Virus record (IMG/VR): IMGVR_UViG_2671180676_000004
Coordinates: 1 to 64,000 of that record
Reading direction: 5' to 3' (one strand)
DNA from: a virus
Taxonomy: Duplodnaviria > Heunggongvirae > Uroviricota > Caudoviricetes
Length of the DNA stretch: 64,000 bases
Positions 2,622-60,468 of this stretch are shown here, one piece after another. The notes under the pieces were generated by a model. The model worked only from the letters and a program-made list of their open reading frames with translations. It was not told the origin of the DNA and did not search any database. Positions within the stretch are counted from its first letter, which is position 1. Every line of letters starts with the position of its first letter. Both the position numbers and the translations under genes were made by a program.

Positions 2622-2637
2622 GAAAACAACTTGTTTT
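2622..2637 (+). promoter_or_regulatory. Motif A palindrome (gaaaacaacttgtttt)
   Basis: Perfect 7-bp inverted repeat, about 30 nt upstream of ATG 2661. Confidence 0.45.
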
Positions 2638-2660
2638 AACAAATAACAAAAGGAAAGCAC

Positions 2661-3086
2661 ATGTTAGGTTTATTCAAAAAGAAAACTCGTAAAGCTGTTA
2701 TCGAGGTCAAAAAAATGGAGAACCGAGATGCGGTTGAAGCCACCGTGTGGGGCGCGTACATGATCTCCTATGCCGATGGCACATGCGACGCAAAGGAAAT
2801 TTCCATTCTTGAGAAAACAATTGCAGCTCTGCCTGCGTTTTCTCCGTTTGCTGGTGAGATTGCCCAAATGAGCGCCAATATCCGTGCTCAATACGAAGCC
2901 TCACCGCGCCGCGCTAATGCCCAGGCTTTACGTGAGCTGGCTGATGTGGCCGGGACTAATGATGCAGTAGATGTACTGTGTCTGTGCCTTGATATTGCCG
3001 ACCAAGACGGTATTGGCGAACAAGAAGAGCTGGCCCTGAAAAAGATCGCACAGGCGCTTCAGTTGTCACTGGATGCTTATCTCTAA
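2661..3086 (+). CDS. TerB-like domain protein
   Basis: Two repeats of the h-x-ADG … E-E-L pattern (YMISYADGTCDAKEIS / CLDIADQDGIGEQEEL) typical of the TerB fold; SD AAAGGAAAG. Confidence 0.5.
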   Translation: MLGLFKKKTRKAVIEVKKMENRDAVEATVWGAYMISYADGTCDAKEISILEKTIAALPAFSPFAGEIAQMSANIRAQYEASPRRANAQALRELADVAGTNDAVDVLCLCLDIADQDGIGEQEELALKKIAQALQLSLDAYL

Positions 3087-3350
3087 TGCTTGAGAGATTC
3101 CGGCTTGTGACCGTCATTGCTCTTCTGGTGATGGCGGTGTTGGTGGATTTTACGGGAAAGATGATGTCTGTCATTTCTGATGGCGTCCTCATTGGTCTGG
3201 CGATCTACTTCGCTTATCCGCTAGTCCGTAAAGCAACGTGTTAATGACAAGGGCCAAATGGCCCTTGTGTTTCGTTGACCGAAATAGAGAGTTTGCACCT
3301 TTACGTTTAGCTTGCTCCCCTTTTATGCCACATCACAATAAAGCCAATAA

Positions 3351-3365
3351 GAAAACAACTTGTTT
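3351..3365 (+). promoter_or_regulatory. Motif A palindrome
   Basis: gaaaacaacttgttt, about 26 nt upstream of ATG 3384. Confidence 0.45.
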
Positions 3366-3383
3366 AAGCATTAGGAAAAACAC

Positions 3384-3953
3384 ATGTGCAAGAAATGCAA
3401 AGCGATAGCTGATGAACAAAACGCCTTATTCGAAGAAATGGATGCTAATGAACTGGTCAAAATGTTAGCCATTCTTCGAGGAATAGAAGACGTTTCCATA
3501 TTTGAGAGAGTGGTTACAGCACTTAATTTTGAGTCCACCTTTGAAGAGCCAACTCAGGTTGTAGCTTTAGCACATCATTTCGGTGTTCATTATCTTGCTG
3601 AAAAAGAGCGCGCTGATAAGTTGCAGGCGACTTTGGATATGGTGAGCGAGACTCAACGAACTGATGACACTAACAAGAGTGAGGCGATTATTGCCAGCAA
3701 AGATCGTGAAATTGCTGGGCTTAAATCCTCTCTAACGATGTTGATGTCTGCGTTCAATCTTATATCTTCTCAGGCGGGTTATAAAATGCCATCACTAAAC
3801 AGCGATGATCCGATGGCCGTTCGTCAGCTTTTGGGAGCAATGGCCGACCAACTCGACGACACAAAGAGTCGGCTTGAAGACATGATGCGTGAGTTAAGCC
3901 ATCGACATAACCTCGCAACACAGCCACACAAAGCCTTTCAAAGCTCTAATTGA
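3384..3953 (+). CDS. Hypothetical protein (189 aa)
   Basis: ORF with SD-like AGGAAA; followed by hairpin tatggccg…cggccata at 3959-3980. Confidence 0.5.
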   Translation: MCKKCKAIADEQNALFEEMDANELVKMLAILRGIEDVSIFERVVTALNFESTFEEPTQVVALAHHFGVHYLAEKERADKLQATLDMVSETQRTDDTNKSEAIIASKDREIAGLKSSLTMLMSAFNLISSQAGYKMPSLNSDDPMAVRQLLGAMADQLDDTKSRLEDMMRELSHRHNLATQPHKAFQSSN

Positions 3954-4008
3954 TCTGATATGGCCGCATGATCGGCCATATTGTGTTGATAAAAAACAAG
4001 GATGAAAA

Positions 4009-4290
4009 ATGGCATACGGTACAGGGATTTACAACAATAAAGGAATTAACGTTACTGGCTTCCTTACTCCTATTTTTTTTCTTGATCGATTTACTGCGTC
4101 ATCAGGCTCTAAGACGTACTCCAATCCGCCACCGGGTAAATCGCTACATGCCGTGTGGTCATTGATGCCTCTTAACAACGACAACTACATTAATTTACCT
4201 GTTCCAACAGTTACTATTAATGGAAATACGGTTAGTTGGTCAAATTTATATACGGGGCTTGGTTCTTACATATACACATACTGGGGATAA
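4009..4290 (+). CDS. Hypothetical protein (93 aa)
   Basis: ATG 4009 with SD CAAGGA 6 nt upstream. Confidence 0.4.
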   Translation: MAYGTGIYNNKGINVTGFLTPIFFLDRFTASSGSKTYSNPPPGKSLHAVWSLMPLNNDNYINLPVPTVTINGNTVSWSNLYTGLGSYIYTYWG

Positions 4291-4292
4291 TT

Positions 4293-4907
4293 ATGTTCGG
4301 GATGTCAATTACTCAATCAGATGGAAGTTTGTGGATGAGTCCAGAATTTACTCCGCAAAATCTGATTAATAAAGGGACAATGTCTACATCTAAAGGTTCT
4401 GTTTTTCAAACATCAATCCCATCAAACAAATCATGCTTTTTCTTCATAAAAAGCAGTAATAAGGCGAACATGATGTTTATTCATGAGCATAGTAACGGAT
4501 ACAATGCTCTCAGATTGCATCAGGTAAATGGTAGCCCCGGAACAATAACAGTTTATGCTTTTTCTGATATGGTGTTACCACATTCTGGCTATGGCATTGC
4601 CATGTATAACAGCGCAGGCGCAATGGTGTATCACGGTGAGATGATGCCCCTTGATGCGAAACTTATCACTATTTCTGACCCTCAATTTACAATAGATATG
4701 GGGTATCCATGTGCGGTAATGCCTGCTATGGTTGGGGTATATAACTATAGACGAACCGATTACGACAGACCTGTCTATGTAACAATGACAGGTGCAACTG
4801 AAAACCAAGTATATAACGGTCAATGGTATTCCGGTAATGTCACATGGGATATTAAGAAGATTTATACAAACAAAATTCTGGTGATAAATACCTCCAAGTA
4901 TGATTAG
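4293..4907 (+). CDS. Hypothetical protein (204 aa)
   Basis: ATG 3 nt after the upstream stop; frame already open from 4236, so possibly one gene split by a frameshift. Confidence 0.4.
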   Translation: MFGMSITQSDGSLWMSPEFTPQNLINKGTMSTSKGSVFQTSIPSNKSCFFFIKSSNKANMMFIHEHSNGYNALRLHQVNGSPGTITVYAFSDMVLPHSGYGIAMYNSAGAMVYHGEMMPLDAKLITISDPQFTIDMGYPCAVMPAMVGVYNYRRTDYDRPVYVTMTGATENQVYNGQWYSGNVTWDIKKIYTNKILVINTSKYD

Positions 4908-5010
4908 CCAATGCCTTTATTTGAAGGATTGCCTGTTTATTTCTATTTAGTACCTTTTCATTTTTGAAATAATTGCACCATTAAACAAATCACTTCTTAA
5001 TGGTGCAATT

Positions 5011-5487
5011 ATGAATACAGCCCTTTCCATCATCGACGATGCCAACTCAAACACTGCTATCGACTATCGGCAGGAAATGAACGTCATCCACGAAATTGTG
5101 GCCGAGTGCGAGAAAGAGATCGCCTTCATGTATCAGGTACACGACTTCGTTTATGGCGACGAACGCCACAACATGATTAATCGCCTGCTGAGACTAAACC
5201 ATCGACCAGATGAAGATCGCTCGCGTTTAAATCGAGGTTGGTTGGATAAAGTCGATCTGGAATGGGTGAAACAGAATATTTGGGCCGAGTACTGGAGGAA
5301 GGTCACGGACATGACTAACGTTTTGCTGATCATGCCAGCTTCCCGTCGTGACGAGTGGTATGAGCAATTTATCGAGGGCAAGCAGGAAGTCATCAAAACT
5401 GACAGAACCGGCTATCAGATGAAGGTTAAAGAGTTCGTTGGTGTACCTGAGTTCAAAGTGGATACAGACATCCCTACGATGGCTTGA
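5011..5487 (+). CDS. Hypothetical protein (158 aa)
   Basis: ORF preceded by inverted repeat gcaccattaa…ttaatggtgc at 4974-5008; convergent with hsdR. Confidence 0.5.
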   Translation: MNTALSIIDDANSNTAIDYRQEMNVIHEIVAECEKEIAFMYQVHDFVYGDERHNMINRLLRLNHRPDEDRSRLNRGWLDKVDLEWVKQNIWAEYWRKVTDMTNVLLIMPASRRDEWYEQFIEGKQEVIKTDRTGYQMKVKEFVGVPEFKVDTDIPTMA

Positions 5488-5545
5488 TCTGACAGCTATC
5501 TGCAAATTGCACAGATATCTGCCAGATCTGGTTCAGATTAATACA

Positions 5546-8500
5546 CTATATCTGCCCACCTACTCCTTTGAACTTTTCAATAAACGTGACGATTTTCTGG
5601 AAAACCGTCTGTTTTTTCGTTTTATATTGCGGGTTTAACGGACTAAGTTTTGGTAATGTCTCGTTTAATTCTGTGCCATTTTCGGTGGCGTATTCGCGTT
5701 TTAAAGACGTGCGAATATAGCGTTTCGCCGCCTCTTCATTGAGATTTTCTTCTTTAATCAACGCTTCTGCTTCACGTAGCTGTTCGTGTTGAGCAAAGGT
5801 AAAGAACGCGTCAATGATGCTGGCTTTGTCTGGTAAATCATCCAGGTTCGTTTGCTGAATAAAATCGACCACCAGGCCCTCTTTAGCACGGTTCCCTAGG
5901 CTTGAACGAATTAAGCGTTTGACCTCTTCGATCATTTCGCCCTTGCCTTTATTTTGTCTGTTGTGTTCGAAAATCAGTCCAAGGATATAATCCAGGTTTA
6001 TTTCCTGAGACTTCAGCAAATCGACCTCAAAAACTACGTCATCCCAGTCAGTGGTTGATTTCTCTTTTTTCTCAGCTTCTTTCTCACGGCGCTGCCAGTC
6101 GCGAATATCGTTATAGGCAGAACGATAATCCTGAATCTTGCGATCAGCAGGGAGACGAATTGTTTGCAATTCAGCGAACTTTTCATCATCCACATAATGT
6201 TCTGCTTTGAATTTTTCTACCGCAACAGGATCGCTAAGATCGATTTGTTGCAGGGCTTTTAGCGTGGCAAATTCATCATAGTTTTGCAGGATGTTCTCGG
6301 CACGCAGGTATTCGCCAAACAGTTTAACGAAGTCTTTCTTCTCTTTTTCACTTTCAATACTGGCAGGGTCAGGGAACCGTTGTTCCAGTTCTGAAACTAC
6401 TGCCATAAAGCCGCGTTTAGCTTCACCTGTAGCAGCATCAGTAAAGCCTTCCATATACTCTGCATAACTCTTTTCTAACACTACATTTTTGGTGTTTTTG
6501 TCACCAAACAGCGTTATGGCATCGATGGTTGAGCGTTCCAGATCGCGGAAAGTGACGATATTACCGAAGGTTTTAGTCGCGTCATAAATGCGGTTGGTAC
6601 GGGAAAATGCCTGCATCAGGCCGTGAAAACGCAAGTTTTTATCGACGAATAGCGTGTTTAATGTTGGAGCATCGAAGCCGGTTAAAAACATCCCCACGAC
6701 GATTAACAAGTCAACATCCTGATTTTTAACCCGCTGAGCCAGGTCCCGATAGTAGTTCTGAAAACCCTTGCTATCAGTGCTGAAATTCATTTGAAAATGG
6801 TCGTTATACTCACGAATTGCAGCGTCCAGAAACTCTTTAGCACTGCTGTCCATTGCACTGGTATCAAAAGATTCATCGGATATTTCACCAATGGCATTTT
6901 GTTCTTCATTAGCGGCAAAGGAGAAGATTGTCGCAACACGCAGTGGTTTATAGGTAGCAGATTTATTAGCTGCTTCCTCTTGTAACCGTTTAAACGTCGC
7001 GTAATAGGCTTTCGCGGCATCCACGCTGCTCACTGCCAACATAGCATTAAAACCTTTTGAGCCAGGGAAGGTACGGTGGGTTTTCTGGCGGAAATTATTC
7101 AGAATATATTGCGTGATTTCCTGAATACGCATGGGATGAAGAAACGCCTGCTGATTTTCAGCCGCACTCAGTTTTTTCTCGTCAGTTTCTGTCTCTAAAG
7201 ACTTAAACTGTGGCCGCACATCGTTGTAGTCCACCTTGAATTTGAGCACTTTTTCGTCACGAATCGCATCGGTAATTACATACGAATGCAATTCACGACC
7301 AAATACGCTGGCGGTTGTTTCTGAGCCTAAGGCGTTTTCCGGGAAAATAGGGGTGCCGGTAAAACCAAACTGATAATAACGTTTGAATTTCTTCTTCAGG
7401 TTTTTCTGCGCTTCTCCAAACTGGCTGCGGTGGCATTCATCAAATATAAACACCACTTGCTGATTATATACAGGCAGGTCGCTTTCTGCTTTCATCAGGT
7501 TATTGAGTTTCTGAATAGTAGTGACGATAATTTTGTTATCGTCCTTATCCAGATTTCGTTTAAGGCCTGCGGTATTTTCCGAGCCGTTGACGCTGTCTGG
7601 CGAAAAACGCTGATATTCCTTCATGGTCTGGTAATCGAGGTCTTTCCTGTCGACCACAAAGAAGACTTTATCAATAAAGTCCAGCTCTGTTGCCAGACGC
7701 GCGGCTTTAAAGCTGGTGAGGGTTTTACCAGAACCGGTAGTGTGCCAGATATACCCACCGCTTTCCGGTTTTGACCAGTTCTTCGCTGTAAAGGAACTCT
7801 TAATTTTCCACAGAATGCGCTCGGTGGCGGCAATCTGGTACGGTCGCATCACCAGTAGCGTCTGACTACTGTCAAAAACGCTGTAGTTCACCAGAACATT
7901 CAGCAGAGTATGTTTCTGGAAAAAGGTAGCGGTAAAGTCTTTGAGGTCTTTAATCAGCGTGTTGTCTGATTTCGCCCAATTCATGGTGAAGTCAAAACTG
8001 TTTTTATCGCGCTTTGTGGTGTTGGCAAAATAACGGGTATCAGTGCCGTTGGAAATGACGAACAGCTGCAGATACTTAAACAGGGAATTTTCGCTGTTAA
8101 AACTCTCTTTACTGTAACGATGTATCTGGTTGAAAGCCTCACGAATCGCCACCCCGCGTTTTTTTAGTTCGATTTGCACCAGCGGTAAACCATTAACCAG
8201 GATCGTGACGTCATAACGGTTAGCATGAGAACCCGTCTGTTCAAACTGCTGGATAATCTGCACCTTATTGCGCATGAGATTCTTTTTATCTATCAAATAG
8301 ATGTTCTCAAGTCGCCCGTCGTCAAAAATAAAGTCGCAGATATAGTCGATATGGATTTTACGGGTTTTATCCAGAATACCATCGCTGGGGTTGTCCAGAT
8401 ACTGCTCCGTGAAGCGCCGCCACTCGCTGTCATTAAACATCACACCATTGAGGCTCTGAAGCTGTTCCCGAACATTGGACAGCATTGCCGACTGTGATTT

Positions 8501-12708: not shown

Positions 12709-12972
12709 ATGGGATTTAATATGAACGAATGGAACATAGCAGCCAAAAGCCAGGAAGAAAGGAATAAAGTTAACGTTGACCTGGCTGCCAGGGGGGTTGC
12801 CTACAAAGAGCGATTGAACATACCCGTCATAGCGGAACAGGTAGCCCGTGAGCAACCTGAGAACCTGCGCACCTATTTCATGGAACGGCTACGGCACTAC
12901 CGGCAGTTAAGCCTCCTGCTGCCAAAAGGAAACGATCCGGTATATCAGAAAGAAGATATAGCCAAAAAATAA
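12709..12972 (+). CDS. Hypothetical protein (83-87 aa)
   Basis: ORF; alternative ATG at 12721; immediately upstream of the UmuD'-like gene. Confidence 0.4.
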
Positions 12973-13070
12973 CGCGCCACCAGGCGAGCGCAAAGCATCG
13001 CGCTATTGCACACTTCAAGCATCTTTAATGTATACTGTATGGATAAACAGTACTCTGAGGTGAAAACGCT

Positions 13071-13460
13071 ATGGGCTTCCCTTCTCCTGCGGCGGATTAT
13101 GCTGAGAGTCGTATTTCTCTTGATCAGCAGATAATTAGACATCCTTCAGCGACCTACTTCTTGAGGGCAGCTGATAGTCATCATCGTGAGGGAATATTAC
13201 AGGGTGCATTGCTGGTGGTCGATTCCTCACTTACCCCGGTTGATGGTTCTCTGCTTGTATGCGCTCTGGATGGGGAATATCGCGTAAAAAGATACCGGAA
13301 GTATCCACGTCAGCATCTGGAGGATTTGAGAACCGGTAAGAAGGAAGCATTGCCAAAGGATGACGATGGATGCACGGGCAGCAATGCCGTGTTTGGTGTG
13401 ATCACTCACATTATCAACGACGCAAGAAGTGGCGAGTTTGATGATTGTCCCGTGATGTAG
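13071..13460 (+). CDS. UmuD'-like S24-peptidase domain protein
   Basis: Begins MGFPSPAADY…HPSATYF, matching UmuD from its Cys-Gly autocleavage site onward; Ser and Lys positions kept (ADSH…VKRY); no umuC partner. Confidence 0.6.
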   Translation: MGFPSPAADYAESRISLDQQIIRHPSATYFLRAADSHHREGILQGALLVVDSSLTPVDGSLLVCALDGEYRVKRYRKYPRQHLEDLRTGKKEALPKDDDGCTGSNAVFGVITHIINDARSGEFDDCPVM

Positions 13461-16810: not shown

Positions 16811-16836
16811 GCCCGGCAACACGCCGGGCATTTTCA
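16811..16836 (+). terminator. Intrinsic terminator of metG
   Basis: gcccggc-aacac-gccgggc followed by TTTT. Confidence 0.8.
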
Positions 16837-16871
16837 TATAGACACAATCCCTTCTGATTTACACAGTACCT

Positions 16872-16886
16872 AAAACAATTTGTTTT
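16872..16886 (+). promoter_or_regulatory. Motif A palindrome
   Basis: aaaacaatttgtttt; first of two tandem copies downstream of metG. Confidence 0.45.
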
Positions 16887-16921
16887 CTACCTTTTGTTGA
16901 TGGAGATAATAAACCACATAA

Positions 16922-16937
16922 GAAAACAACTTGTTTT
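16922..16937 (+). promoter_or_regulatory. Motif A palindrome
   Basis: gaaaacaacttgtttt, 13 nt before ATG 16950. Confidence 0.45.
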
Positions 16938-16949: not shown

Positions 16950-17249
16950 ATGTTGAACATTACCCAAGCCTACCAGGTGGCATTGATCAGCTCATCTCAT
17001 ACATCAGAGGAAGATGCTCGCCGATTCATGATCGCAAGCAATGAGCTGGATTGGGTTTCACAAATTGAGTACGGTTGCATTGTCCACGCCGGGTTACAGG
17101 ACGATGACTGGAAAGATGAGTTGCGTCGATATGGTATATCCGAGGGCGCGATTGCGAACATTCAGAAAGTACTTGATGTAGGCTTTGACTCTGTACATTT
17201 TGATTGTGGTGCACCGGTCGTTGAAGGGCTAGAGTGCTGGCAATGGTAA
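16950..17249 (+). CDS. Hypothetical protein (99 aa)
   Basis: ATG 16950 with SD GGAGTGG; the track start 16941 is GTG. Confidence 0.5.
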   Translation: MLNITQAYQVALISSSHTSEEDARRFMIASNELDWVSQIEYGCIVHAGLQDDDWKDELRRYGISEGAIANIQKVLDVGFDSVHFDCGAPVVEGLECWQW

Positions 17250-19395: not shown

Positions 19396-19728
19396 GTACC
19401 GGTATAGCGTGAGGGAGAGTTGCGGCTACCCACCTGTAATGTGCGGGAAGAAGAGAGGCGCTCACGTGCAGGCGAACTTACTTACCGCTGGATTCCCTCT
19501 GAATGCCCAGCTACAGCGTAATTGTGCCAGACAGCCAACGGGTCACAATCGATTTCAGTAGGTTTTCGGGGAGAGGATTATTCTGCCCACCAGCCACCTT
19601 CGGCCACTAAATCAGAATAATGTAAAAAGTGTACTCGATACTGAACCTGAAAACTCACTGCCAAAACAACATTCACCGGAATAAAATCCTTTTTCGCCTG
19701 TGCGTTATTGCGATAATAACACCAACGA

Positions 19729-19743
19729 GAAAACAATTTGTTT
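19729..19743 (+). promoter_or_regulatory. Motif A palindrome
   Basis: gaaaacaatttgttt, 13 nt before ATG 19756. Confidence 0.45.
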
Positions 19744-19755
19744 AAGGATTGCTTT

Positions 19756-20085
19756 ATGTTTGCAAATATCGACATCAACCAAATCAAGAAATTAACTCAA
19801 AAAGAGTTTGATCAGTTTTATGAGTTAGAAGGTTGGTCTTCCACTCTGATCAATTCGCGGTGGGTGCTTGAGCTGATGACTCGTGATGACGCACCTGCTT
19901 TGATGATTTGCGACATGGGTGAAGATGCTGACTTTATGGATATGAGCGAATTTTGTGTGGACACATACAACCGCAGCCAGAAGTACTACTTCACATGCGA
20001 TAGCGAAAATGACGTGATTTCTAAGGTCTATCTTCACCTCGTCCAGCATTGGGACGTTCAGGAGTTTCTTGAAGTATTCGAGTAA
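19756..20085 (+). CDS. Hypothetical protein (109 aa)
   Basis: ATG 19756; track start 19738 is TTG. Confidence 0.5.
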   Translation: MFANIDINQIKKLTQKEFDQFYELEGWSSTLINSRWVLELMTRDDAPALMICDMGEDADFMDMSEFCVDTYNRSQKYYFTCDSENDVISKVYLHLVQHWDVQEFLEVFE

Positions 20086-20212
20086 CCCCAACCAAAGCCA
20101 GCAATGCTGGCTTAATTTCTCTATAGCCGCAGGGAGGAACCTGCATATCGATCATGCACCTGATCATTATGCTTTGTAGCCGTTTTCTTACTGGTATTAT
20201 TTACGCCATTGA

Positions 20213-20227
20213 GAAAACAAGTTGTTT
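20213..20227 (+). promoter_or_regulatory. Motif A palindrome
   Basis: gaaaacaagttgttt, 12 nt before ATG 20239. Confidence 0.45.
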
Positions 20228-20238
20228 ACGGAGTTGTG

Positions 20239-20550
20239 ATGAAAAAATCATTGGTTCTTGGTCTGGACAAAGACCAGAAGAGAAAAGAGAAGCCTGCACT
20301 GGTTGCTCAATTAACTTTGCTAGACATCGTTGCCAATGGAACTTCTATTCGTCTGTTCCGTGAAACAGCGGTGTCTTTCGATAAAAACACCTTTACTCGT
20401 TATGTAATGAATGTTCGTCGCCAGCGTGGAAAAGGATGGGTGGCATTTCAAAGAATGTGGCCGGAACATCAGCTCGAACTGGCCTTGATGGAAGTTAACC
20501 GCGTGGCCCAGCAAGAAATTCAGAGAGCATCAGTGATGGCAATAGCCTGA
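20239..20550 (+). CDS. Hypothetical protein (103 aa)
   Basis: ATG 20239 with SD GGAG. Confidence 0.5.
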   Translation: MKKSLVLGLDKDQKRKEKPALVAQLTLLDIVANGTSIRLFRETAVSFDKNTFTRYVMNVRRQRGKGWVAFQRMWPEHQLELALMEVNRVAQQEIQRASVMAIA

Positions 20551-21081: not shown

Positions 21082-21108
21082 AATGGCGCGTAAACCGCGC
21101 CATTTTAT
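21082..21108 (+). terminator. Intrinsic terminator
   Basis: aatggcgcg-taaac-cgcgccatt + TTATTA. Confidence 0.7.
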
Positions 21109-21118
21109 TATGCCCGAT

Positions 21119-21131
21119 AACAATTTGTTTT
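21119..21131 (+). promoter_or_regulatory. Motif A variant (aacaatttgtttt)
   Basis: Upstream of ATG 21154/21190. Confidence 0.35.
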
Positions 21132-21189
21132 CTGCCTTATCAGATTTGTGAAAATGATTTCACTGAAGCAACTTAATAAGGAAACCATC

Positions 21190-21564
21190 ATGGGACTTGA
21201 TATCTATATCGAGACACAGCCTAAAAACGATCTGAATAACGAGGCATCCAGAAAGCAGGTTGCTTACTTCCGTAAGTTCAATGCGCTCGTTGGGTGGATG
21301 GAGCGCAACGTAGGTGAAGTCGAAAATTGTGAGCTTTTAGAATTAACGATGAATGACATTTGTCTTCTGAAAGCTCATTTGATGCACATAAACGAAAGCA
21401 ATTGCGAAGAGTACTTGCCTACTCGGGAAGGTTTTTTCTTCGGCAGTCAGGAGTACGACGAAGGTTACTGGCATGACGTGGATAAGCTGAAAAAACTTGT
21501 GGAAGACCTGATCAGGAACCACGACTTTCACAATAACAGACTGACCTTCTGCGCCTGGTGGTAA
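21190..21564 (+). CDS. Hypothetical protein (124 aa)
   Basis: ATG 21190 with SD AAGGA; in-frame alternative ATG 21154 lacks an SD. Confidence 0.45.
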   Translation: MGLDIYIETQPKNDLNNEASRKQVAYFRKFNALVGWMERNVGEVENCELLELTMNDICLLKAHLMHINESNCEEYLPTREGFFFGSQEYDEGYWHDVDKLKKLVEDLIRNHDFHNNRLTFCAWW

Positions 21565-21850: not shown

Positions 21851-21879
21851 ATTCGTACAACGATAATTAACACCAATAA

Positions 21880-21893
21880 GAAAACAATTTGTT
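21880..21893 (+). promoter_or_regulatory. Motif A palindrome
   Basis: gaaaacaatttgtt, 22 nt before ATG 21915. Confidence 0.45.
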
Positions 21894-21914
21894 ATTTACG
21901 ATAAGGAATTAATC

Positions 21915-22397
21915 ATGAATTTTATCGCTACTGTAAACGCACCCGCACATGGCAATATCGCTGTAACGTTCTCTGACATTGAAAAACGAGTACTTGGTGC
22001 ATGGCGCGACAATGAGACGGTAGAACTGTCAGCACAAGAAAAATGCATTATTGCACGCGACATCATTGGCAATCGTCGTTACTCGCGGGTATTTGAGAAA
22101 GCGTATGTGGTAAATTCTGGATTCGGAACGTTCGTCTTTCCGGTGCGCTCCGGGCGATTCTGCCAGTCCAAGCTGATTGAGTTCGCTACGCAGATTTCTG
22201 TCTGGATTAAAACTCAATCGTCGTTCAAATTTTCCGACGATGAAGCAGTATCGCAGGGGATGCGGATCGCCAACAATGCGATTAAATGCAAAAACATTAC
22301 GTATACCGCTGGCGTTGACACATGGAAACTGTTTTGCGCTAACTTTATGCTGAATGTATACGCAAGCAACCGCATCCACATCCTTGATGGCGTGTAA
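21915..22397 (+). CDS. Hypothetical protein (160 aa)
   Basis: ATG 21915 with SD AAGGA. Confidence 0.5.
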   Translation: MNFIATVNAPAHGNIAVTFSDIEKRVLGAWRDNETVELSAQEKCIIARDIIGNRRYSRVFEKAYVVNSGFGTFVFPVRSGRFCQSKLIEFATQISVWIKTQSSFKFSDDEAVSQGMRIANNAIKCKNITYTAGVDTWKLFCANFMLNVYASNRIHILDGV

Positions 22398-24761: not shown

Positions 24762-25286
24762 TCAAAAAGGCAAAATTCGTTCAACCCAATCGAACAAAAC
24801 AACTATTTTTCTACCGTTCTCGACACGTAGTGTAACCTGACAAGCATCTGCGCCTGCTGACACCCCCTCAATTTCACGGCCATCCGCCATGTACACCCTT
24901 ATAGATTTGTTTGCTTTGTAGGCTTGGTTGCAAATTGCAAAAAAATCGCGGCGTGATGGCCGATTATCGACATAATCAGGGTGAACTGTTAGTCGACCTT
25001 TGAAATCGTGAGCGATACTGTCAACCACACCTGATTCAATTGTACTAATGCGTTCAAGTGGGAGCCTTATACGATTTTCTTTGTCAAAAGGGGCTGGGCA
25101 AAGGTCAACTTTGTTACGAGATGGCATGAGGCCATAAACGTACATGCAAAACGCCTGGCCATCTTCGAGAGTGACCCTTACAGGAATTTGTTCTCTGCGC
25201 CAGAACATCAGTAGTTTTTCAACGTTAGTGTAATCTCGCGGCCAGAGTTCAGCTTGGATACCGTAGGTAATATCTTTGGTTGTCAT
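24762..25286 (-). CDS. Hypothetical protein (174 aa)
   Basis: Start set at MTTKD to avoid overlap with the upstream lipoprotein gene. Confidence 0.45.
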   Translation of the reverse strand: MTTKDITYGIQAELWPRDYTNVEKLLMFWRREQIPVRVTLEDGQAFCMYVYGLMPSRNKVDLCPAPFDKENRIRLPLERISTIESGVVDSIAHDFKGRLTVHPDYVDNRPSRRDFFAICNQAYKANKSIRVYMADGREIEGVSAGADACQVTLRVENGRKIVVLFDWVERILPF

Positions 25287-25781: not shown

Positions 25782-26060
25782 TTATTTTAATCTGCTTAAT
25801 AGCGTTTCGAGATCTTCCTTTGTCATATTAGAGTTCTCATAGATACGCATGATTTTCTCACGAGTCTTAGCGGAAGCCCCGACAGAAGATATAACCTTGT
25901 CAAAGTCGGCCATTGTCAATTGTTCCAGAATGGTATTTATGACTTCAGCCTTAGACATTTTGATATTTTTTTCTTTTAGTTTCACTTGAAACTTTCCAAG
26001 TTTGTCATTGGCCTTATCAGACAATGCTACCTGACAATAAGTTGTTTTCTTTTCGCTCAT
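25782..26060 (-). CDS. Hypothetical protein (92 aa)
   Basis: ORF 2 nt downstream of the helicase gene. Confidence 0.45.
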   Translation of the reverse strand: MSEKKTTYCQVALSDKANDKLGKFQVKLKEKNIKMSKAEVINTILEQLTMADFDKVISSVGASAKTREKIMRIYENSNMTKEDLETLLSRLK

Positions 26061-30611: not shown

Positions 30612-30878
30612 ATGACGTTAACCGATAAACAAAAGGACATCATCAAAACGCTCAATCTCGGTTATGAGCGAGGTCATCTACTTGATCTGGACGAATTGCT
30701 TGAAGTTTTGCCGTACAAGACAACCAAGCAAAGTATCCAGTTCTCAATTCGCGCTCTGATAAAAAAGGGGCTTGTGGAGAAAGGGCATACGCGCCAACGC
30801 AGTGACAATCGCTATCACCGCCGAACTCTTGGGTTAACCACTTTAGGTCGAGCCAAAGCGAAGTTACTGGTGATGTAA
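30612..30878 (+). CDS. Small basic putative winged-helix DNA-binding protein
   Basis: 88 aa; last gene of the coupled operon; followed by hairpin H2. Confidence 0.4.
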   Translation: MTLTDKQKDIIKTLNLGYERGHLLDLDELLEVLPYKTTKQSIQFSIRALIKKGLVEKGHTRQRSDNRYHRRTLGLTTLGRAKAKLLVM

Positions 30879-30994: not shown

Positions 30995-31035
30995 GAAAAC
31001 AAGTTGGTTAGAAAATGCAGTAAACAAGTTGTTTT
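30995..31035 (+). promoter_or_regulatory. Tandem motif A copies upstream of the small terminase gene
   Basis: gaaaacaagttgg and aaacaagttgtttt, followed by palindrome agagcgc-atggac-gcgctct. Confidence 0.4.
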
Positions 31036-31074: not shown

Positions 31075-31707
31075 ATGACGGTCGAAAAAGACGAGGTAAA
31101 AACTCGCCTGACACCAGCGGAGTGGGCCGAAGCTGAAGCCAAATGGACGTCAGGCGAATATACACTCTCAAAGCTGGAGGAAGAGTACGGCATTCGTCGT
31201 GAAACACTCTCCAGACATTTCAAAAAGCGAGGATTAGAGAAAGGCGCGGACTCTGTTGGGAAGATGGTTCGTGAGTCTCTTAAATCTGACGCAGAGCTTC
31301 GCGCTAAAGCCCGTGCGGAAAAGATAGAAGAACGTCGTACACGTTATGACGGCTGGGCGTATGCGTTGGGGCAGATGGTGATGGTCGAAGTCACTACGGC
31401 CAAACGTGAGGGTAAGCCTTTAGGGGCGATTGAGGATTCTCTCAAGAGCTTACAGAGAGCCAGTAATACCCTTGCAAAATGCTTTGAAGTTTCGTCCAAA
31501 GCATTGGGCATGGATCATGCGGAAAATGACGAGGAAGAAATTCCGAACCTGGTATTTGGTGAGCTTACGCCTTCCCAGGTGGCGAAATTACGTCAGGAAG
31601 ACGACGAGCCTGAAATCATCGATGACGAATTGCTTGAGACGTTGGAAGAAGAAGCTCTAAGCGAATTTGATGCGACAGATGATGGAAGTGAAGGGGAGGA
31701 CGAATAA
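31075..31707 (+). CDS. Terminase small subunit (putative)
   Basis: 210 aa directly upstream of and overlapping TerL; acidic C-terminus. Confidence 0.55.
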   Translation: MTVEKDEVKTRLTPAEWAEAEAKWTSGEYTLSKLEEEYGIRRETLSRHFKKRGLEKGADSVGKMVRESLKSDAELRAKARAEKIEERRTRYDGWAYALGQMVMVEVTTAKREGKPLGAIEDSLKSLQRASNTLAKCFEVSSKALGMDHAENDEEEIPNLVFGELTPSQVAKLRQEDDEPEIIDDELLETLEEEALSEFDATDDGSEGEDE

Positions 31708-32963
31708 TGGCAATCCCGTCCTCGCTCAGTCTTGTGCAACTGCATTCTGGACAGATGAAAGTCTTCCAGTCTCCGCATCGATTTAAAGTTGTTTGTGCTG
31801 GTCGACGCTGGGGAAAATCCCGGTTGTCGATCTCCACTATTATTCGTGCGGCGGCAAAGGAAAAAAAGCAAAGGGTCTGGTATGTCGCTCCTACTTACCA
31901 GATGGCTCGCCAGATTTTGTGGGACGATCTACAGGAAGTTCTGCCTCGTAAGTGGGTTAGGAAAAAGAACGACACCACGATGACAATCGTGTTGAAGAAC
32001 GGTTCGGAGATCGCCCTCAAAGGTGCTGATAAGCCTGACACTCTGCGCGGCGTAGCGTTGCATTTTGTAGTGCTTGATGAATTTCAGGATATGAAGGCTG
32101 ACACCTGGTACAAGGTGTTACGACCTACTCTTTCATCGACACGCGGCGGTGCACTGATCATTGGTACGCCAAAAGGTTTCTCGGAATTTCACAAACTGTG
32201 GACTATAGGCCAGAACGTAGAGCTGCAAAGAAAGGGACAGTGGAAGAGCTGGCAGTTTGTAACTGCCGATTCTCCGTTTGTGCCTACGGCGGAAATTGAA
32301 GCTGCTAAGAACGATATGGACCCGAAATCGTTCGCTCAGGAGTACCTGGCGAGCTTTGAGAACATGTCCGGGCGCGTTTACTACCCGTTCGATCGTAACG
32401 TGCATGTAAAACCGCTTCAGTTCAACCCTCGGTTGCCTATATGGGTAGGGCAGGACTTCAACATTGACCCGATGTCTTCAGTAATTTTGCAACCTCAGCC
32501 AAATGGTGAGCTATGGGCAATTGATGAATTGGTGCTCTTTTCCTCTAACACGGCAGAGGTTTGTGATGAGCTTGAGAGACGCTTCTGGCGCTGGAAATCA
32601 CAGATAACGGTATTTCCAGATCCGGCAGGTGCTTATCGCCAACATGCTCGCGGGGAGTCTGACGTCGACATATTCAAAGAGAAGGGATTCTTACGTGTCG
32701 ATTATTCGAAAAAGCACCCGCCAATTGCGGATCGTGTTAATGCTGTTAACCGAATGCTGATGACCGCATCTGGAGATATCCGGTTGTATATCGATCCGAA
32801 GTGCAAGCATTTGATTGATTCACTGGAAAAAGTCATCTACAAGCCTGGAACACGAGATATGGATAAGACAGGTGGCATTGAGCATAGTGCAGACGCATTG
32901 GGCTATCCAGTACATCGTAGGTATCCAGTCAAAAACCGTGTTATTCTTGGTGGTTCTCGATAG
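31707..32963 (+). CDS. Terminase large subunit
   Basis: Walker A-like VVCAGRRWGKS; C-terminal acidic nuclease-type segment. Confidence 0.85.
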   Translation: MAIPSSLSLVQLHSGQMKVFQSPHRFKVVCAGRRWGKSRLSISTIIRAAAKEKKQRVWYVAPTYQMARQILWDDLQEVLPRKWVRKKNDTTMTIVLKNGSEIALKGADKPDTLRGVALHFVVLDEFQDMKADTWYKVLRPTLSSTRGGALIIGTPKGFSEFHKLWTIGQNVELQRKGQWKSWQFVTADSPFVPTAEIEAAKNDMDPKSFAQEYLASFENMSGRVYYPFDRNVHVKPLQFNPRLPIWVGQDFNIDPMSSVILQPQPNGELWAIDELVLFSSNTAEVCDELERRFWRWKSQITVFPDPAGAYRQHARGESDVDIFKEKGFLRVDYSKKHPPIADRVNAVNRMLMTASGDIRLYIDPKCKHLIDSLEKVIYKPGTRDMDKTGGIEHSADALGYPVHRRYPVKNRVILGGSR

Positions 32964-32980
32964 GTAAGTAATTATCTAAG
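32961..32980. repeat. Motif B copy (taggtaagtaattatctaag)
   Basis: TerL/portal junction. Confidence 0.45.
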
Positions 32981-46479: not shown

Positions 46480-46536
46480 TACTATCATTGTGGCGCTGAC
46501 AGGATGTTAGCGCCTACTTATTTCAAGGATGAAACA

Positions 46537-47235
46537 ATGGGAATTAAAGCTGATATTCAGAGCTTATCTCCCTCTGCACTCATTGAGTTGTTCGTACTGG
46601 ATATGTCGAACACAACTTCAGGGGGGAAGCTATTCTTCCACGCCGGAACAAACGAACTGATGCAACCGGTCGTCTGGCAAGGGGTGACATACGAGCCGTG
46701 GCCAATCAAAGCATCAGGCTTTGACAAAACGGGCCAGGGAACGTTGCCACGTCCAAAAATTCAGGTATCGAACTTTGCCGGAACCGTCTCTGCGGAAGTT
46801 CAGGCGAACGACGATCTTGTTGGCTGCCGCATTATTCGCAAGATGACGCTGGCTCGCTTCCTCGATGCCGTTAATTTTAAAGACGGCAACCCAACAGCAG
46901 ATCCAAACCAACATTTCCCGGATGAAATGTGGTTTATCGAACAGAAAACTCTCGAAACTCATCAGGTTGTCGAGTTTGAATTGTCCAGTGTGTTCGATTT
47001 GATGGGGGTGCAACTGCCGTATCGTCAGATCATTAAAAACACCTGCCCGTGGAAATACCGAGGGCCAGAATGCGGCTATACCGGTCCATATTTCGACAAA
47101 AATAACCAGCAGACGTCTATGTCTGGTGCGGATTACTGCACAAAACGTTATGACGCCTGTAATGCGCGTCGGAATTATTTTGCCGACGGTGTGATCCATT
47201 TTGGCGGATTTATTGGAGCTACGCGGTATGGGTAA
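46537..47235 (+). CDS. Minor tail protein L (lambda L-like)
   Basis: ARFLDAVNF…G…ADP and Cys cluster CPWKYRGPECGY…C…C match lambda L. Confidence 0.75.
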   Translation: MGIKADIQSLSPSALIELFVLDMSNTTSGGKLFFHAGTNELMQPVVWQGVTYEPWPIKASGFDKTGQGTLPRPKIQVSNFAGTVSAEVQANDDLVGCRIIRKMTLARFLDAVNFKDGNPTADPNQHFPDEMWFIEQKTLETHQVVEFELSSVFDLMGVQLPYRQIIKNTCPWKYRGPECGYTGPYFDKNNQQTSMSGADYCTKRYDACNARRNYFADGVIHFGGFIGATRYG

Positions 47236-48606: not shown

Positions 48607-48617
48607 ACAAGGATTTT

Positions 48618-53351: not shown

Positions 53352-53391
53352 TGGTGGAAAAAAAATTTTATATCGGTAAAAATAGGTAAGT

Positions 53392-53410
53392 ATTTACTTA
53401 ATGGCGGACA
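53392..53410. repeat. Motif B copy (ataggtaagtatttactta)
   Basis: J/tail fibre junction. Confidence 0.5.
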
Positions 53411-57854: not shown

Positions 57855-57874
57855 ATAGGTAAGTATATACCTAT
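57855..57874. repeat. Motif B palindrome (ataggtaagtatatacctat)
   Basis: 7-bp arms ATAGGTA/TACCTAT; tail fibre/lysis junction. Confidence 0.5.
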
Positions 57875-58260: not shown

Positions 58261-58273
58261 CAGGAGATCAAGG

Positions 58274-58966: not shown

Positions 58967-58967
58967 T

Positions 58968-59219
58968 ATGCTAGGCAGCCTGATGACAAAGCTAAAAGTT
59001 GCTTTGATTACGCTGGCTGCCGTTCTTTTCGTTCTTGTCGGCGCTTACACGATGGGCGGGAATGCGGCGCGACGAGCAATGGAAGAGAAGGCAAAACAGG
59101 AAGACAGAAAACGACTTCAAAGCACAGTGGAAGTGGTGAATGAGACGAGCAATAAAATACGTCAGAAAGATGCTTCTGCCGTTCATCGTGAGTTGTATGA
59201 TAAGTGGGTGCGTCATTAA
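58968..59219 (+). CDS. i-spanin (Rz-like)
   Basis: N-terminal TM VALITLAAVLFVLVGAY then charged helical periplasmic part. Confidence 0.6.
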   Translation: MLGSLMTKLKVALITLAAVLFVLVGAYTMGGNAARRAMEEKAKQEDRKRLQSTVEVVNETSNKIRQKDASAVHRELYDKWVRH

Positions 59220-59355
59220 ACCACAAACCGCCAGCGTATTGTTCTGCGATGGAGCTGGGCCTATCTATATCAGCAATAATGATGTGATGACCGAAGAAAC
59301 CGAACGCCAAATCCTTTTTCACAATACGATGGGAGAGAGAGTTTGCGGTTGGTGA
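59140..59355 (+). CDS. o-spanin (Rz1-like lipoprotein), overlapping Rz in another frame
   Basis: Lipobox MISGC after a basic n-region; starts inside the Rz gene and extends past its stop. Confidence 0.5.
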   Translation: MRRAIKYVRKMLLPFIVSCMISGCVIKPQTASVLFCDGAGPIYISNNDVMTEETERQILFHNTMGERVCGW

Positions 59356-59386
59356 TGCGAAGTTCCCCTCACTTGAGGGGAGTACA

Positions 59387-59908
59387 TTATTCTTCGAACA
59401 ATTTTTCGATAGATTTTGTAGGATAGAACAAAGAACGCTCGTTGTTACCAACCAGCTGGATAAAGCCTAAACTTTTATAAAACGCCTTGGCTTTGTCATT
59501 TAACGCCTCAACGAAAAGTCCATGAATGCCTACAGCAAGAGATGCATTGTACACAACGCGCATTGCATGTGTTACAAGCATTGAGCCAAATCCTTGACCT
59601 TGAAGGGACTTGTCCAAAGCCAGCCTACCCAAAGTAACACTTGGAACATTCCGATAAGGTACCTTCTTTTGCTGGCTTCTTGAAGGTAAGGACTCCTTTT
59701 CAAAGCAGCTGCCTGACAAAGTGTAATACCCTAACACTTTTGGTCTGTCTTCTTTCGTGAAAAGCACATAAGCGCGAAGAATTTTTCCCTCATGCTGCCT
59801 TTTTAAGTGGTTGGTTAAAAAGGCATTTAGTGATTCTTCACCGCAATCAAAACCATTCAAATCATAATCTTTCTCTCCAGAGAAAATTTCTATCTTTATA
59901 TTATCCAC
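59387..59908 (-). CDS. GNAT-family tRNA-acetylating toxin (AtaT/ItaT/TacT-like)
   Basis: 173 aa; strong resemblance to remembered AtaT (…DYDL..FDCGEE.LN.FLT.HL.RQH…ILRAY.L…VLGYYTL.GSCFE…LPS.S.QKK.PY.N.PSVTLGRLA.D.SLQGQG…GIHGLFVEALN.KA..FYKSLGF). Confidence 0.8.
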   Translation of the reverse strand: MDNIKIEIFSGEKDYDLNGFDCGEESLNAFLTNHLKRQHEGKILRAYVLFTKEDRPKVLGYYTLSGSCFEKESLPSRSQQKKVPYRNVPSVTLGRLALDKSLQGQGFGSMLVTHAMRVVYNASLAVGIHGLFVEALNDKAKAFYKSLGFIQLVGNNERSLFYPTKSIEKLFEE

Positions 59909-59915
59909 GAGTAAA

Positions 59916-60185
59916 CTACTCCATGCTTTTCAGACGATCAGCAGCTCGTTTCAGCTTGTCGTTCGGTGCCGGAGGATTGCTTATAGCGTCCATAACCAGA
60001 TTCCAGGATTCTTCATTCAGAACTAGTCTACGGTGTTGCTCTATAACTTTCACGGCACGTTCAGATGCACTGCTAACCATAAACTGAGTAATGCTCTGGT
60101 TAGACATTGCGGCAGCTTCCTCGATGATGCTTTTATCGTCATCGGTTAATCTCAAATCGATGCGCTGCTTTTTTAGTGCTGACAT
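59916..60185 (-). CDS. DUF1778 (RHH) antitoxin, AtaR-like
   Basis: …KKQRIDLRLTDDDK…NQS..QFM..SAS.RA..VIEQHRR..LNEESW…NPP.P..KLKRAA.RL; ATG 60185 with SD AGGAGG; 7 nt upstream of the toxin. Confidence 0.8.
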   Translation of the reverse strand: MSALKKQRIDLRLTDDDKSIIEEAAAMSNQSITQFMVSSASERAVKVIEQHRRLVLNEESWNLVMDAISNPPAPNDKLKRAADRLKSME

Positions 60186-60453
60186 GTATTCCTCCTGATG
60201 GCCGTGATGTAGGAAGGCCATCAATCTCCTCTGTTCAAACTGAGTTTTCGACTCAAAAATTACTTTAAAAGGCTATAGCCCATTACGTGTGCATTATCAA
60301 ATTGTGTACGGCATATCACCGTACTTGTAATATAGAGGTCATTGTTACTTTTTTCAACAGACAAATACAAGCTATGATTGCCAATTGTTAATCACAACCT
60401 ACCATTTAACCTTTACACCGCAGCCGTAGGCATTTAGGCTATATCACATATAA

Positions 60454-60468
60454 GAAAACAAGTTGTTT
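60454..60468 (+). promoter_or_regulatory. Motif A palindrome
   Basis: gaaaacaagttgttt, about 35 nt before ATG 60504. Confidence 0.45.

Follow-up and report, generated by a model that had tools for sequence, protein, structure and literature searches.

A palindromic putative operator in promoter cassettes of enterobacterial SSU5/pHCM2/pMT1-type phage-plasmids

A palindrome that appears to be without earlier description recurs within a promoter cassette of enterobacterial SSU5/pHCM2/pMT1-type phage-plasmids, where it is interpreted as a duplex-DNA operator to which a dimeric protein would bind. It is regarded as probable, with considerable room for doubt, that an element-encoded dimer, most likely the small protein p119, acts through these operators and keeps 15-20 units off in the plasmid state. 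The window, i.e. the whole stretch of 64,000 nucleotides that was analysed, belongs to such a phage-plasmid, and the E. coli chromosome was excluded as its setting. The element carries resistance and host-derived cargo (dfrA51, apbC and metG). The label apbC-metG given in the first-pass annotation was correct in its gene names, both genes being cargo of the phage-plasmid and no sign of a chromosomal setting. Elements of this type, which carry resistance and host-derived genes, are frequent in clinical enterobacteria. In PLSDB the capsid gene was found in 957 plasmids and the ParA-partner gene in about 800.

Occurrence of the palindrome in the window and among relatives

The search for GAAAACAAnTTGTTTT with at most 2 mismatches yielded 24 strand-matches, corresponding to 13 loci in the window, compared to 0.56 expected loci and a maximum of 4 in 100 dinucleotide shuffles. 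Eleven of the 13 loci are located just upstream of nine plus-strand genes with starts at 2661, 3384, 16950, 19756, 20239, 21190, 21915, 31075 (small terminase) and 60504 (ParA), so that the recurrence described on first reading, with its eleven copies, was reproduced at the positions claimed. The distance from the end of the site to the start codon was given there as 12-45 nt and actually ranges from 10 to 64 nt. The two other loci, at 24796 and 26033, have 2 mismatches and fall within genes of the minus strand; they look like chance matches or copies without function. The putative operator copies and associated elements are as follows:

2622..2637, plus strand: perfect 16-mer GAAAACAACTTGTTTT, 23 nt before the TerB-family gene 2661-3086
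3351..3366, plus strand: copy 17 nt before the gene 3384-3953 (189 aa), with -10-like CACAAT at 3334-3339
16871..16886, no strand assigned: upstream copy (O-up) in flipped orientation, TAAAACAATTTGTTTTC, past the metG terminator hairpin 16812-16828 and overlapping the -35 region
16905..16910, plus strand: GATAAT, the -10-like hexamer belonging to the 16950 unit; the O-up centre is 26 nt upstream of it and the O-down centre 25 nt downstream
16922..16937, plus strand: downstream copy (O-down), perfect 16-mer, 12 nt before the DUF5983 gene 16950-17249
19729..19744, plus strand: copy 11 nt before the gene 19756-20085, with extended -10 TGcGATAAT ending at 19717
20213..20228, plus strand: copy 10 nt before the gene 20239-20550, with TGgTATTAT (-10 at 20195-20200)
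21116..21131, no strand assigned: O-up-type copy after the terminator hairpin 21085-21101, followed by TGtGAAAAT (-10 at 21150-21155) and the gene 21190-21564
21880..21895, plus strand: copy 19 nt before the gene 21915-22397, with GATAAT at 21862-21867
30995..31035, plus strand: pair of copies in opposite orientations (30995-31010 and 31020-31035), 25 bp apart, before the small-terminase gene 31075-31707
60454..60469, plus strand: copy 34 nt before the ParA gene 60504-61172

The centres of O-up at 16871..16886 and O-down at 16922..16937 are 51 bp apart. The promoter of the gene 21190-21564 has no full downstream copy, only the O-up-type copy at 21116..21131. The pair in front of the small-terminase gene is kept in SSU5, Cyrano and pMT1, and in a diverged K. 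oxytoca lineage the copy is the sole conserved block of the ParA promoter.

The positional bias toward start codons, on which the first-pass annotation had made its interpretation depend, was found in a near-identical complete plasmid: 12 of 17 site centres lie 15-70 nt upstream of an annotated start on the same strand, a range that holds 4.8% of random positions (binomial p about 7e-13). If the longer ORF at 16950 is used, the pair 16871/16922 is also in range (20 and about 71 nt), which raises the count above 12 of 17.

The elements of E. coli, Salmonella and Klebsiella contain 17, 21 and 15 copies per genome, respectively, versus about 1 expected. With 15-21 occurrences per genome, the same consensus extends to Salmonella, Klebsiella, Yersinia and more distant enterobacterial relatives. 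It was likewise recovered from pMT1, which has kept 7 sites, from Nissabacter-type contigs and from diverged Klebsiella lineages with proteins only 35-80% identical. Enterobacterial SSU5-like genomes contain the motif 13- to 29-fold over shuffles, and in the Acinetobacter and Aeromonas relatives it is not enriched over shuffles; in this sense the motif is confined to this type of element and is no general sequence feature. The Acinetobacter and Aeromonas relatives bear another palindrome, of the GTAAG..CTTAC type. A second palindrome was found at late-gene junctions of the family.

Promoter cassette geometry and the nature of the site

The sites are part of a fixed module comprising TGnGATAAT (extended -10), 11 nt, GAAAACAAnTTGTTTA, a Shine-Dalgarno sequence (SD) and ATG. 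The order of the full cassette is: terminator hairpin of the preceding unit, optional O-up TTAAACAAnTTGTTTTC, TGCCTTTT..., TGnGATAAT, 11 nt, O-down GAAAACAAnTTGTTTA(A), Shine-Dalgarno, ATG. A TATAAT/GATAAT hexamer (at least 5 of 6 matches) is present in 27 of 61 non-redundant promoter-oriented sites (44%) versus 2.3% of random positions, so that the -10-like context noted earlier was borne out; it starts 24-27 nt, mostly 25-26 nt, before the dyad centre, and 18 of the 27 hexamers are accompanied by the TG of an extended -10. The composite of -10, 10-12 nt and GAAAACAA was found 34 times on the coding strand, as opposed to a single case on the opposite strand. A subset of promoters has a second, inverted copy 51 bp upstream, over the -35 region. 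These upstream copies account for about one site in four; flanks included, their sequence is that of the downstream copies in reverse complement, and they lie exactly 26 nt before an extended -10-like hexamer. Between neighbouring copies, the only spacings observed were 51 bp and 25 bp, with 6 cases each. In 10 promoters the left half-site GAAAACAA stands alone, directly followed by the SD; 4 of these are without an upstream copy, and the half-site may have a role of its own.

Because a simple sigma-70 scan with a -35 requirement did not call the cassette promoters, the promoter was inferred from the -10 alone. Transcription would start about 7 nt past the -10, which would place O-down at about +5 to +21 and O-up at about -46 to -30, both within the footprint of RNA polymerase. 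The fixed offset to the -10-like hexamer supports, for the start predicted in this way, the earlier proposal of a shared cis-element located at the transcription start of many units or directly past it. A promoter for a phage single-subunit RNA polymerase of the T7/T3/SP6 type was not supported: no such polymerase is annotated in four relatives or in the identical plasmid.

The first-pass annotation had left the choice between a shared operator and a 5'-UTR hairpin. Its notion of one shared cis-element was upheld, while the hairpin was not. In 100 non-redundant sites the dyad positions -7 to -1 and +1 to +6 have 1.3-1.85 bits apiece, with a free centre base. Both half-sites are conserved, as would be expected of a repressor operator, a dyad-symmetric site of 14-20 bp. 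With the outermost position set aside, the deviations consisted of 44 unpaired and 6 G-U combinations and 0 compensated ones, and no double (compensatory) changes occurred in the five inner variable pairs. Paired cells made up 74.9% versus 80.3% in column shuffles, and the covariation score was 0.034 versus 0.077, with 500 of 500 shuffles at least as high; pairing, too, was lower than in each of the 500. The minimum free energy of the hairpin was -0.4 to -1.9 kcal/mol (z of -0.74 to +0.71 versus shuffles), and in 4 of 6 sequences the best fold differed from the palindrome hairpin. A structured RNA hairpin is not supported by these results, nor by the flipped orientation of about a quarter of the sites, which are located on the upstream side of the promoter. 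Since the arms vary independently, compensation is absent and the hairpin is no more stable than shuffles, the palindrome reads as a duplex-DNA operator.

Lysogen expression and candidate binding proteins

The units with sites comprise small accessory genes, nrdB, a DnaB-like helicase gene, a CobT-like gene, the terminase/structural operon and ParA, a range for which the former description as an early-gene regulon is too narrow. Published RNA-seq data are available for a lysogen, LF82 carrying the sister element Cyrano (PMC9928086, S1 table). There, terS (7.1), the CobT-like gene (7.8), nrdB (12.9) and the small genes (5-13) contrast with a median of 9.8, and ParA (50), p119 (89) and the next gene (55) are higher (PMC9928086). 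The genes behind sites are hence at background in LF82(Cyrano), the ParA operon excepted. Repression would be the effect of the sites; the silence in the lysogen would equally fit a missing activator or repression at the mRNA level. Three proteins encoded in the window were considered as readers of the site:

61172..61531, plus strand: p119, leading candidate binder, 119 aa, after ParA, with a basic arm and an RTMSLEDE...FTRSDVIRAAI core
30612..30878, plus strand: p88, second candidate binder, 88 aa, winged-helix-like, with a sub-threshold LexA_DNA_bind match
24762..25286, minus strand: FljA homologue, Pfam Flag1_repress (E 1.5e-84), with a predicted tandem Sm/Hfq-like fold

The best candidate is p119, followed by p88, and these are the same two small proteins that had been singled out on first reading. 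p119 may have a ribbon-helix-helix fold, and its best fold match, a weak one, is SegB, a ParA-partner protein. The p119 gene overlaps the stop codon of ParA (222 aa, matching MipZ/AAA_31/CbiA), and the copy at 60454 lies, as in type Ib partition systems, in the promoter of a small ParA gene and a small partner gene. p119 is expressed in the lysogen from an operon whose own promoter bears a site, and its arm and core (RPQGRPTRGK..IKSRTMS.EDE, FTRSDVIRAAI) stay unchanged even where overall identity falls to 48%. Like the palindrome, p119 is absent from the Acinetobacter and Aeromonas relatives, and the two occur together in about 800 enterobacterial plasmids; the same branch distribution is shared by 35 other proteins. 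pMT1 has 7 sites but no p119, a loss which may be recent. Clustered centromere repeats were not found near the par operon (59900-63700), where a single palindrome copy is located near ParA. Known proteins of the ParG/omega type recognise short repeats set in arrays instead of single dyads of 15 bp. The family also has an immunity-type HTH repressor; different repeats precede its own gene, and it is missing from SSU5, which keeps the palindrome.

In the proposed mechanism, an element-encoded dimeric protein would bind the two half-sites of the palindrome, and copies 51 bp apart (about five helical turns) would probably be bridged by it. The binder would hold some 15-20 transcription units off during plasmid life, ParA only partially. 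With p119 as the binder, the sites would represent an autoregulatory operator as well as dispersed partition-protein sites. Only tentatively is it suggested that p119 is both partition adaptor and master silencer of the phage programme, the dyads in about 15-20 cassettes marking the DNA and holding replication, accessory and packaging operons off. If true, plasmid maintenance and lysogeny would form one circuit in roughly 800-950 sequenced enterobacterial phage-plasmids.

The same DNA operator could instead be read after induction or infection by a lytic-phase regulator, p88 or another small one, which would shut early units or time the terminase operon, lysogenic silence then coming from elsewhere. 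Among the small candidates, p88 shows the highest conservation in all lineages with an unchanged motif (75-100% identity, above p119) and is still 78% identical in a lineage where the FljA-like protein and p92 fall to about 35%. It matches LexA_DNA_bind over the full domain length, albeit below threshold (E 0.072), and the end of its gene lies 117 nt upstream of the terS double site. However, p88 is at background in the lysogen (7.8 versus a median of 9.8) and therefore cannot keep promoters off there, and the Acinetobacter and Aeromonas relatives, which lack the palindrome, contain weak p88-like matches (40-43% over 35-57 aa); since the GTAAG..CTTAC palindrome is found there instead, p88 may accompany the other motif. 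This assignment is considered unlikely. Control at the RNA level appears more doubtful still: the FljA homologue would read a 5' leader element (AAGAAAACAA...UUGUUUA by the SD), block translation and destabilise the mRNAs, as FljA does on fliC mRNA. The full-length Flag1_repress match (E 1.5e-84), the position of the promoter-proximal sites in the leader adjoining the SD, the persistence of the A-rich left half alone in 10 promoters and the limitation of the gene to the same branch as the palindrome are in line with such a role. Yet the two halves show the same degree of conservation and the upstream copies, being flipped, are exact reverse complements, a pattern not explained by a reader of RNA; the FljA-like protein is only 36% identical in a lineage with unchanged motif, the E. 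coli fliC leader (100% in 3187 genomes) contains nothing like AAAACAAnTTGTTTT, and shutting off host flagellin is a simpler role for the homologue.

A host protein conserved in Enterobacterales, recruited by the element to its own promoters, is a possible reader too, and an improbable one. The motif is invariant over lineages whose own proteins are 35-80% identical and over at least 6 host genera, and it is missing exactly where the host is non-enterobacterial; on the other hand, a dedicated anti-repressor would be required if a host repressor sat on every lytic promoter. The E. coli regulator box considered on first reading was the wrong frame, the carrier being a phage-plasmid. To our knowledge, the palindrome fits no known E. 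coli box (IHF, Fis, KdgR, DeoR, LexA, PhoP), and the nearest likenesses, IHF WATCAAnnnnTTR and the KdgR box, deviate from it in spacing or at positions that do not vary. Least credible of all is a reading of the copies chiefly as marks of a mobile promoter cassette (terminator, promoter and leader), spread by recombination and shuffling small genes, with the dyad as a by-product. In the variable small-gene region at 16.9-22.4 kb, whole cassettes of 60-90 bp are indeed repeated next to terminator hairpins, together with their flanks (TGCCTTTT, GATAAT, CCAAnAAG), but the diverged ParA promoter has kept the dyad block amid drifted flanks, and dyad positions carry 1.4-1.85 bits each versus less than 0.6 at most flank positions. 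Such mobility would moreover be compatible with operator function and no replacement for it.

Meaning and comparison with known systems

The duplex-DNA operator reading provides a testable regulatory map consisting of a defined promoter cassette, an operator common to 15-20 units, a second palindrome and a short list of candidate regulators. In addition, the palindrome serves as a sequence signature for the enterobacterial branch of these elements and for transcription units in unannotated assemblies.

T4-type cassettes consist of a repeated hairpin followed by an early promoter before small variable genes in a plastic region, and the same hairpin-promoter unit is repeated before small genes here; T4, in contrast, lacks a conserved leader dyad, and such phages are virulent. 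Salmonella FljA/fliC is comparable in that a homologue is encoded here and that the known target lies between transcription start and SD, like the downstream copies, whereas FljA acts on RNA and the present sites behave like symmetric duplex-DNA sites and also occur upstream of promoters. The inverted repeats IR1-4 of N15 are spread through phage genes. They are four separate SopB-binding sites (IR sequences, PMC7205306). N15 is thus similarly a phage-plasmid with a centromere of single palindromes instead of a tandem array, but SopB is a large ParB-type protein paired with a type Ia ParA, and its four sites have no fixed promoter geometry.

In the plasmid prophage P1, operators of the single protein C1 are dispersed genome-wide, serve many operons and are paired at some promoters. 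The likeness lies in the control of many operons by scattered copies of one site, some promoters having pairs; the P1 operators, however, are asymmetric 17-mers and the palindrome here is a dyad, and no C1 homologue was seen in the annotation. KorB/OB of IncP RK2, omega of pSM19035 and ParG of TP228 are ParA partners that autoregulate their own operon, and KorB and omega also repress other promoters via site copies spread over the replicon. The par-like feature here is the copy in the ParA promoter together with the ParA operon alone being partly on in the lysogen; the differences are that the sites are single dyads of 15-17 bp and that the fold of p119 is weakly indicated. We know of no demonstration that a phage lytic programme is silenced by a protein of the ParA-partner type. 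The palindrome is a new, family-wide case of a known kind of element.

Distribution of the palindrome in a phage-plasmid family

By megablast, the window was matched to E. coli plasmids of about 110 kb, with pUTAK-6-1 (NZ_CP157149.1) as a 100% match to positions 21-6000, as well as to the phages CMS-2020a, PhiR41_1 and Cyrano and, more distantly, to Klebsiella phages and Salmonella phage SSU5. In RefSeq, the identical plasmid is annotated with a complete siphovirus structural module, genes for replication and for nucleotide metabolism, RepB and ParA, and apbC and metG are listed as plasmid genes. Judged by these sequence matches, the window is a phage-plasmid of the SSU5/pHCM2/pMT1 type and not chromosome. 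The apbC-metG landmark is therefore cargo inside a phage-plasmid.

The palindrome, an inverted repeat of 15-17 bp, was found in the window with up to two mismatches as 24 strand-matches, corresponding to 13 loci (0.56 expected). All eleven copies named in the first-pass annotation were recovered among them; the two further loci, 24796 and 26033, are located inside minus-strand genes and are probably due to chance. The complete plasmid carries 17 loci compared to 1.3 in shuffles, and the additional ones precede a DnaB-like helicase gene, a CobT-like gene, a DUF7238 gene and nrdB. The positional bias towards start codons was confirmed, as the centre of 12 of the 17 plasmid sites lies 15-70 nt upstream of an annotated start on the same strand (random 4.8%; p ~7e-13). 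Sites were also present in the enterobacterial relatives.

Palindrome sites in related elements
SSU5 (Salmonella): 21
Cyrano (sister phage-plasmid in E. coli LF82): 19
Klebsiella pJN2-26: 15
Yersinia pestis pMT1: 7
Three Nissabacter/Enterobacter-type contigs: present
Diverged K. pneumoniae lineage: about 16 in 40 kb
ParA promoter of a diverged K. oxytoca plasmid: 1, dyad block retained, flanks drifted

In the Acinetobacter baumannii element, whose capsid shares 59% identity, the palindrome was not enriched (3 matches, 2.9 expected), and the Aeromonas veronii element, with a capsid identity of 53%, gave 0 matches with 0.3 expected. An exact-pattern scan of viral contigs yielded, among the matches listed, nothing beyond single hits in unrelated contigs, attributable to chance.

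Several further features of the window were recorded:
1-20: 16 positions differ from pUTAK-6-1, and all E. coli matches listed begin at base 21; this probably marks the record boundary or the junction to a variable segment
5546-11582, minus strand: complete type I restriction-modification system (hsdR, hsdS, hsdM) between site-bearing small-gene blocks; a different type I system is at a comparable place in the Acinetobacter relative
12709-13460: theta-like gene and 129-aa S24 peptidase gene upstream of apbC, a pair resembling Hot and HumD (UmuD'-like) of P1
13497-16788: apbC (minus strand) and full-length metG, between two blocks of site-bearing units
46504-47235: intact 243-aa ORF for minor tail protein L, frameshifted in RefSeq NZ_CP157149.1; the window and that record differ here by a small indel (46626 onward)
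59387-60224, minus strand: GNAT/DUF1778 (KacT-type) toxin-antitoxin pair, divergent from the ParA promoter, with a palindrome AGGCTATAGCC at 60270 and a half-copy at 60436 overlapping the ParA -10 region

RNA-seq of the Cyrano lysogen shows expression of apbC (92), a near-background level of metG (16) and high levels of both toxin-antitoxin genes (344 and 592); the S24 gene is among the top-expressed genes (148 compared to a median of 9.8), with a higher level still inside macrophages.

Site anatomy and the leader-RNA alternative

For the analysis of the site, 100 non-redundant copies were aligned on the dyad. Conservation is strong and equal in the two arms, the central base is unconstrained, and the dyad is extended at one end (G-AAAACAA ... 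TTGTTTA-A). The sites split into a promoter-proximal and an upstream class. Promoter-proximal sites have their GAAAAC end facing the promoter and are preceded by a -10-like hexamer (GATAAT, TATTAT, GAAAAT or CACAAT), usually with an extended -10 TG, while a Shine-Dalgarno sequence and start codon follow 10-40 nt after the site. The hexamer mostly starts 25-26 nt before the dyad centre (27 of 61 sites, compared to 2.3% of random positions). Upstream sites read as the exact reverse complement, TTAAACAAnTTGTTTTC; they often adjoin a G+C hairpin at the end of the preceding unit and are followed by TGCCTTTT and then by the same -10 hexamer exactly 26 nt from the site centre (16/35). Neighbouring copies are spaced by 51 bp or by 25 bp, with six cases each and no other distance. 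With a transcription start about 7 nt after the -10 hexamer, the downstream copy would span approximately +5 to +21, and its upstream counterpart approximately -46 to -30. Site-bearing promoters were not called in a sigma-70 scan requiring a -35 match; in appearance they belong to the extended -10 type with a weak -35. Two other assignments were dropped, namely a sigma-28 promoter, prompted by the CGATAA core, due to the lack of a suitably spaced TAAA -35, and a T7-like polymerase promoter, prompted by the T3-like AATTAAC..AAG appearance, due to the lack of an annotated polymerase gene.

The first-pass annotation had left room for a 5′-UTR hairpin, a reading that failed in every test run (energy, compensation, covariation and flipped copies). 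The predicted hairpin energy is -0.4 to -1.9 kcal/mol, no better than that of shuffles. With the outermost position excluded, deviations from the dyad comprise 44 unpaired, 6 G-U and 0 compensated cases. Over 75 distinct sites, pairing (74.9%, column shuffles 80.3%) and covariation (0.034, column shuffles 0.077) were each lower than in 500 of 500 shuffles, owing to an anti-correlation between the two outer positions, in which one end is always 'strong'. Moreover, a leader-RNA reading makes no sense for the flipped copies located upstream of promoters. In ten promoters GAAAACAA alone is found at the usual place with the Shine-Dalgarno sequence directly after it, six of them with a full upstream copy and four without any, so that this left half-site may have a role of its own. 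Taken as a structured leader RNA, the palindrome fails on the tests that define one; at the sequence level it fits a promoter-overlapping operator.

Expression in the lysogen and candidate binding proteins

Per-gene RNA-seq data of the Cyrano lysogen in LF82 have an element-wide median of 9.8 (PMC9928086, S1 table). In this data set 7.1 normalised reads were reported for terS, 7.8 for the CobT-like gene, 12.9 for nrdB, 7.0 for the TciA-like gene and 5-13 for small genes behind sites, and 50 for ParA, 89 for p119 and 55 for the gene after p119; ciprofloxacin induces Cyrano 39-fold (PMC9928086). Lysogen expression and induction agree with a repressor-type operator and an autoregulated ParA operon, a fit that does not amount to proof. 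The following products were considered as binders:
61172-61531, plus strand: p119, 119-aa protein encoded after ParA
30612-30878, plus strand: p88, 88-aa winged-helix-like protein
25782-26060: p92, RHH-like protein, lysogen-expressed
24762-25286, minus strand: FljA homologue

Based on branch contrast, lysogen expression and conservation, p119 was ranked before p88, followed by a host factor or another protein and then by the FljA homologue, all of them as candidates only. Phyletic profiles across the phage collection gave no discrimination, each candidate being present in the same 12 SSU5-like records, and the candidates are told apart only by the Acinetobacter and Aeromonas relatives. Both of these elements lack p119, p92 and the FljA homologue and retain both ParB_N proteins and the terminase; p88-like matches are weak. 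This branch-restricted pattern is common to thirty-six proteins, among which p119, p92 and the FljA homologue are lysogen-expressed, plausible nucleic-acid binders. Sequence searches of PDB and Pfam with p119, p92 and p88 returned nothing significant. Of the candidates, p88 shows the highest conservation; it resembles a LexA-type winged helix (E 0.072), and in the lysogen it is silent. p92 was down-ranked because its putative DNA-reading strand differs between lineages sharing the motif. The FljA homologue (Pfam E 1.5e-84) has a predicted tandem Sm/Hfq-like architecture and, given the reported action of FljA on fliC mRNA, is a candidate only for the leader-RNA reading; it is only 36% identical in a lineage with an unchanged motif.

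The immunity-type HTH repressor (CYRAN_45 type, beside the integrase and outside the window) is an unlikely binder, having other repeats, GGTAAGnnCTTACC, before its own gene and no homologue in SSU5, which yet keeps 21 sites. A p119-like match on a 252-kb plasmid, considered as a test of whether the motif follows the protein, is a truncated remnant in an SSU5-like fragment and therefore no independent case. Aeromonas veronii pVA7-1 encodes an annotated Hfq beside a DnaB-like helicase, and an HU protein (L145, 53193-53510; L144, 29474-29758); the enterobacterial branch has the tandem Sm-like FljA homologue instead.

A second palindrome and comparison with known systems

Another dispersed palindrome, (ata)GGTAAGyrCTTACC(tat), immediately adjoins a -10-like TAnnAT at junctions of late genes (terminase/portal, ahead of the tail fibre, ahead of the lysis genes) and also precedes the immunity-type repressor gene, with 7 copies compared to ~0.1 expected in SSU5 and in pJN2-26.

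Positions of the second palindrome
Window: 1720-1733, 32963-32976, 53385-53398, 57858-57871
SSU5 (L004/L005): 2034, 27477, 77654, 78712, 84181
pJN2-26: 14624, 28034, 40583, 44029, 69445, 90502

Related forms precede most operons in an Acinetobacter element (TAGTAAGCGCTTACTA, 25 times) and in an Aeromonas element (CAGTAAnnnnTTACTG, 18 times). It has the appearance of a second and older class of promoters common to the whole supercluster, and it recalls the late promoters of P1.

The sequence of the first palindrome was not found in the literature searched, and the papers examined on SSU5-like elements mention no promoter, operator or motif. Its closest analogues include the dispersed C1 operators of P1, the partition proteins KorB and omega, which also act as global repressors, and the separate SopB palindromes of N15; the repeated hairpin-promoter units recall T4-type promoter cassettes. 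A ParG/omega-type centromere is an ambiguous match, since the site in the par promoter is alike but the repeat array is missing here and the ribbon-helix-helix fold of p119 is putative. It is plausible that one protein serves both partition and lysogenic silencing. Elements of this kind are already known, and the family-wide instance described here appears to be new.
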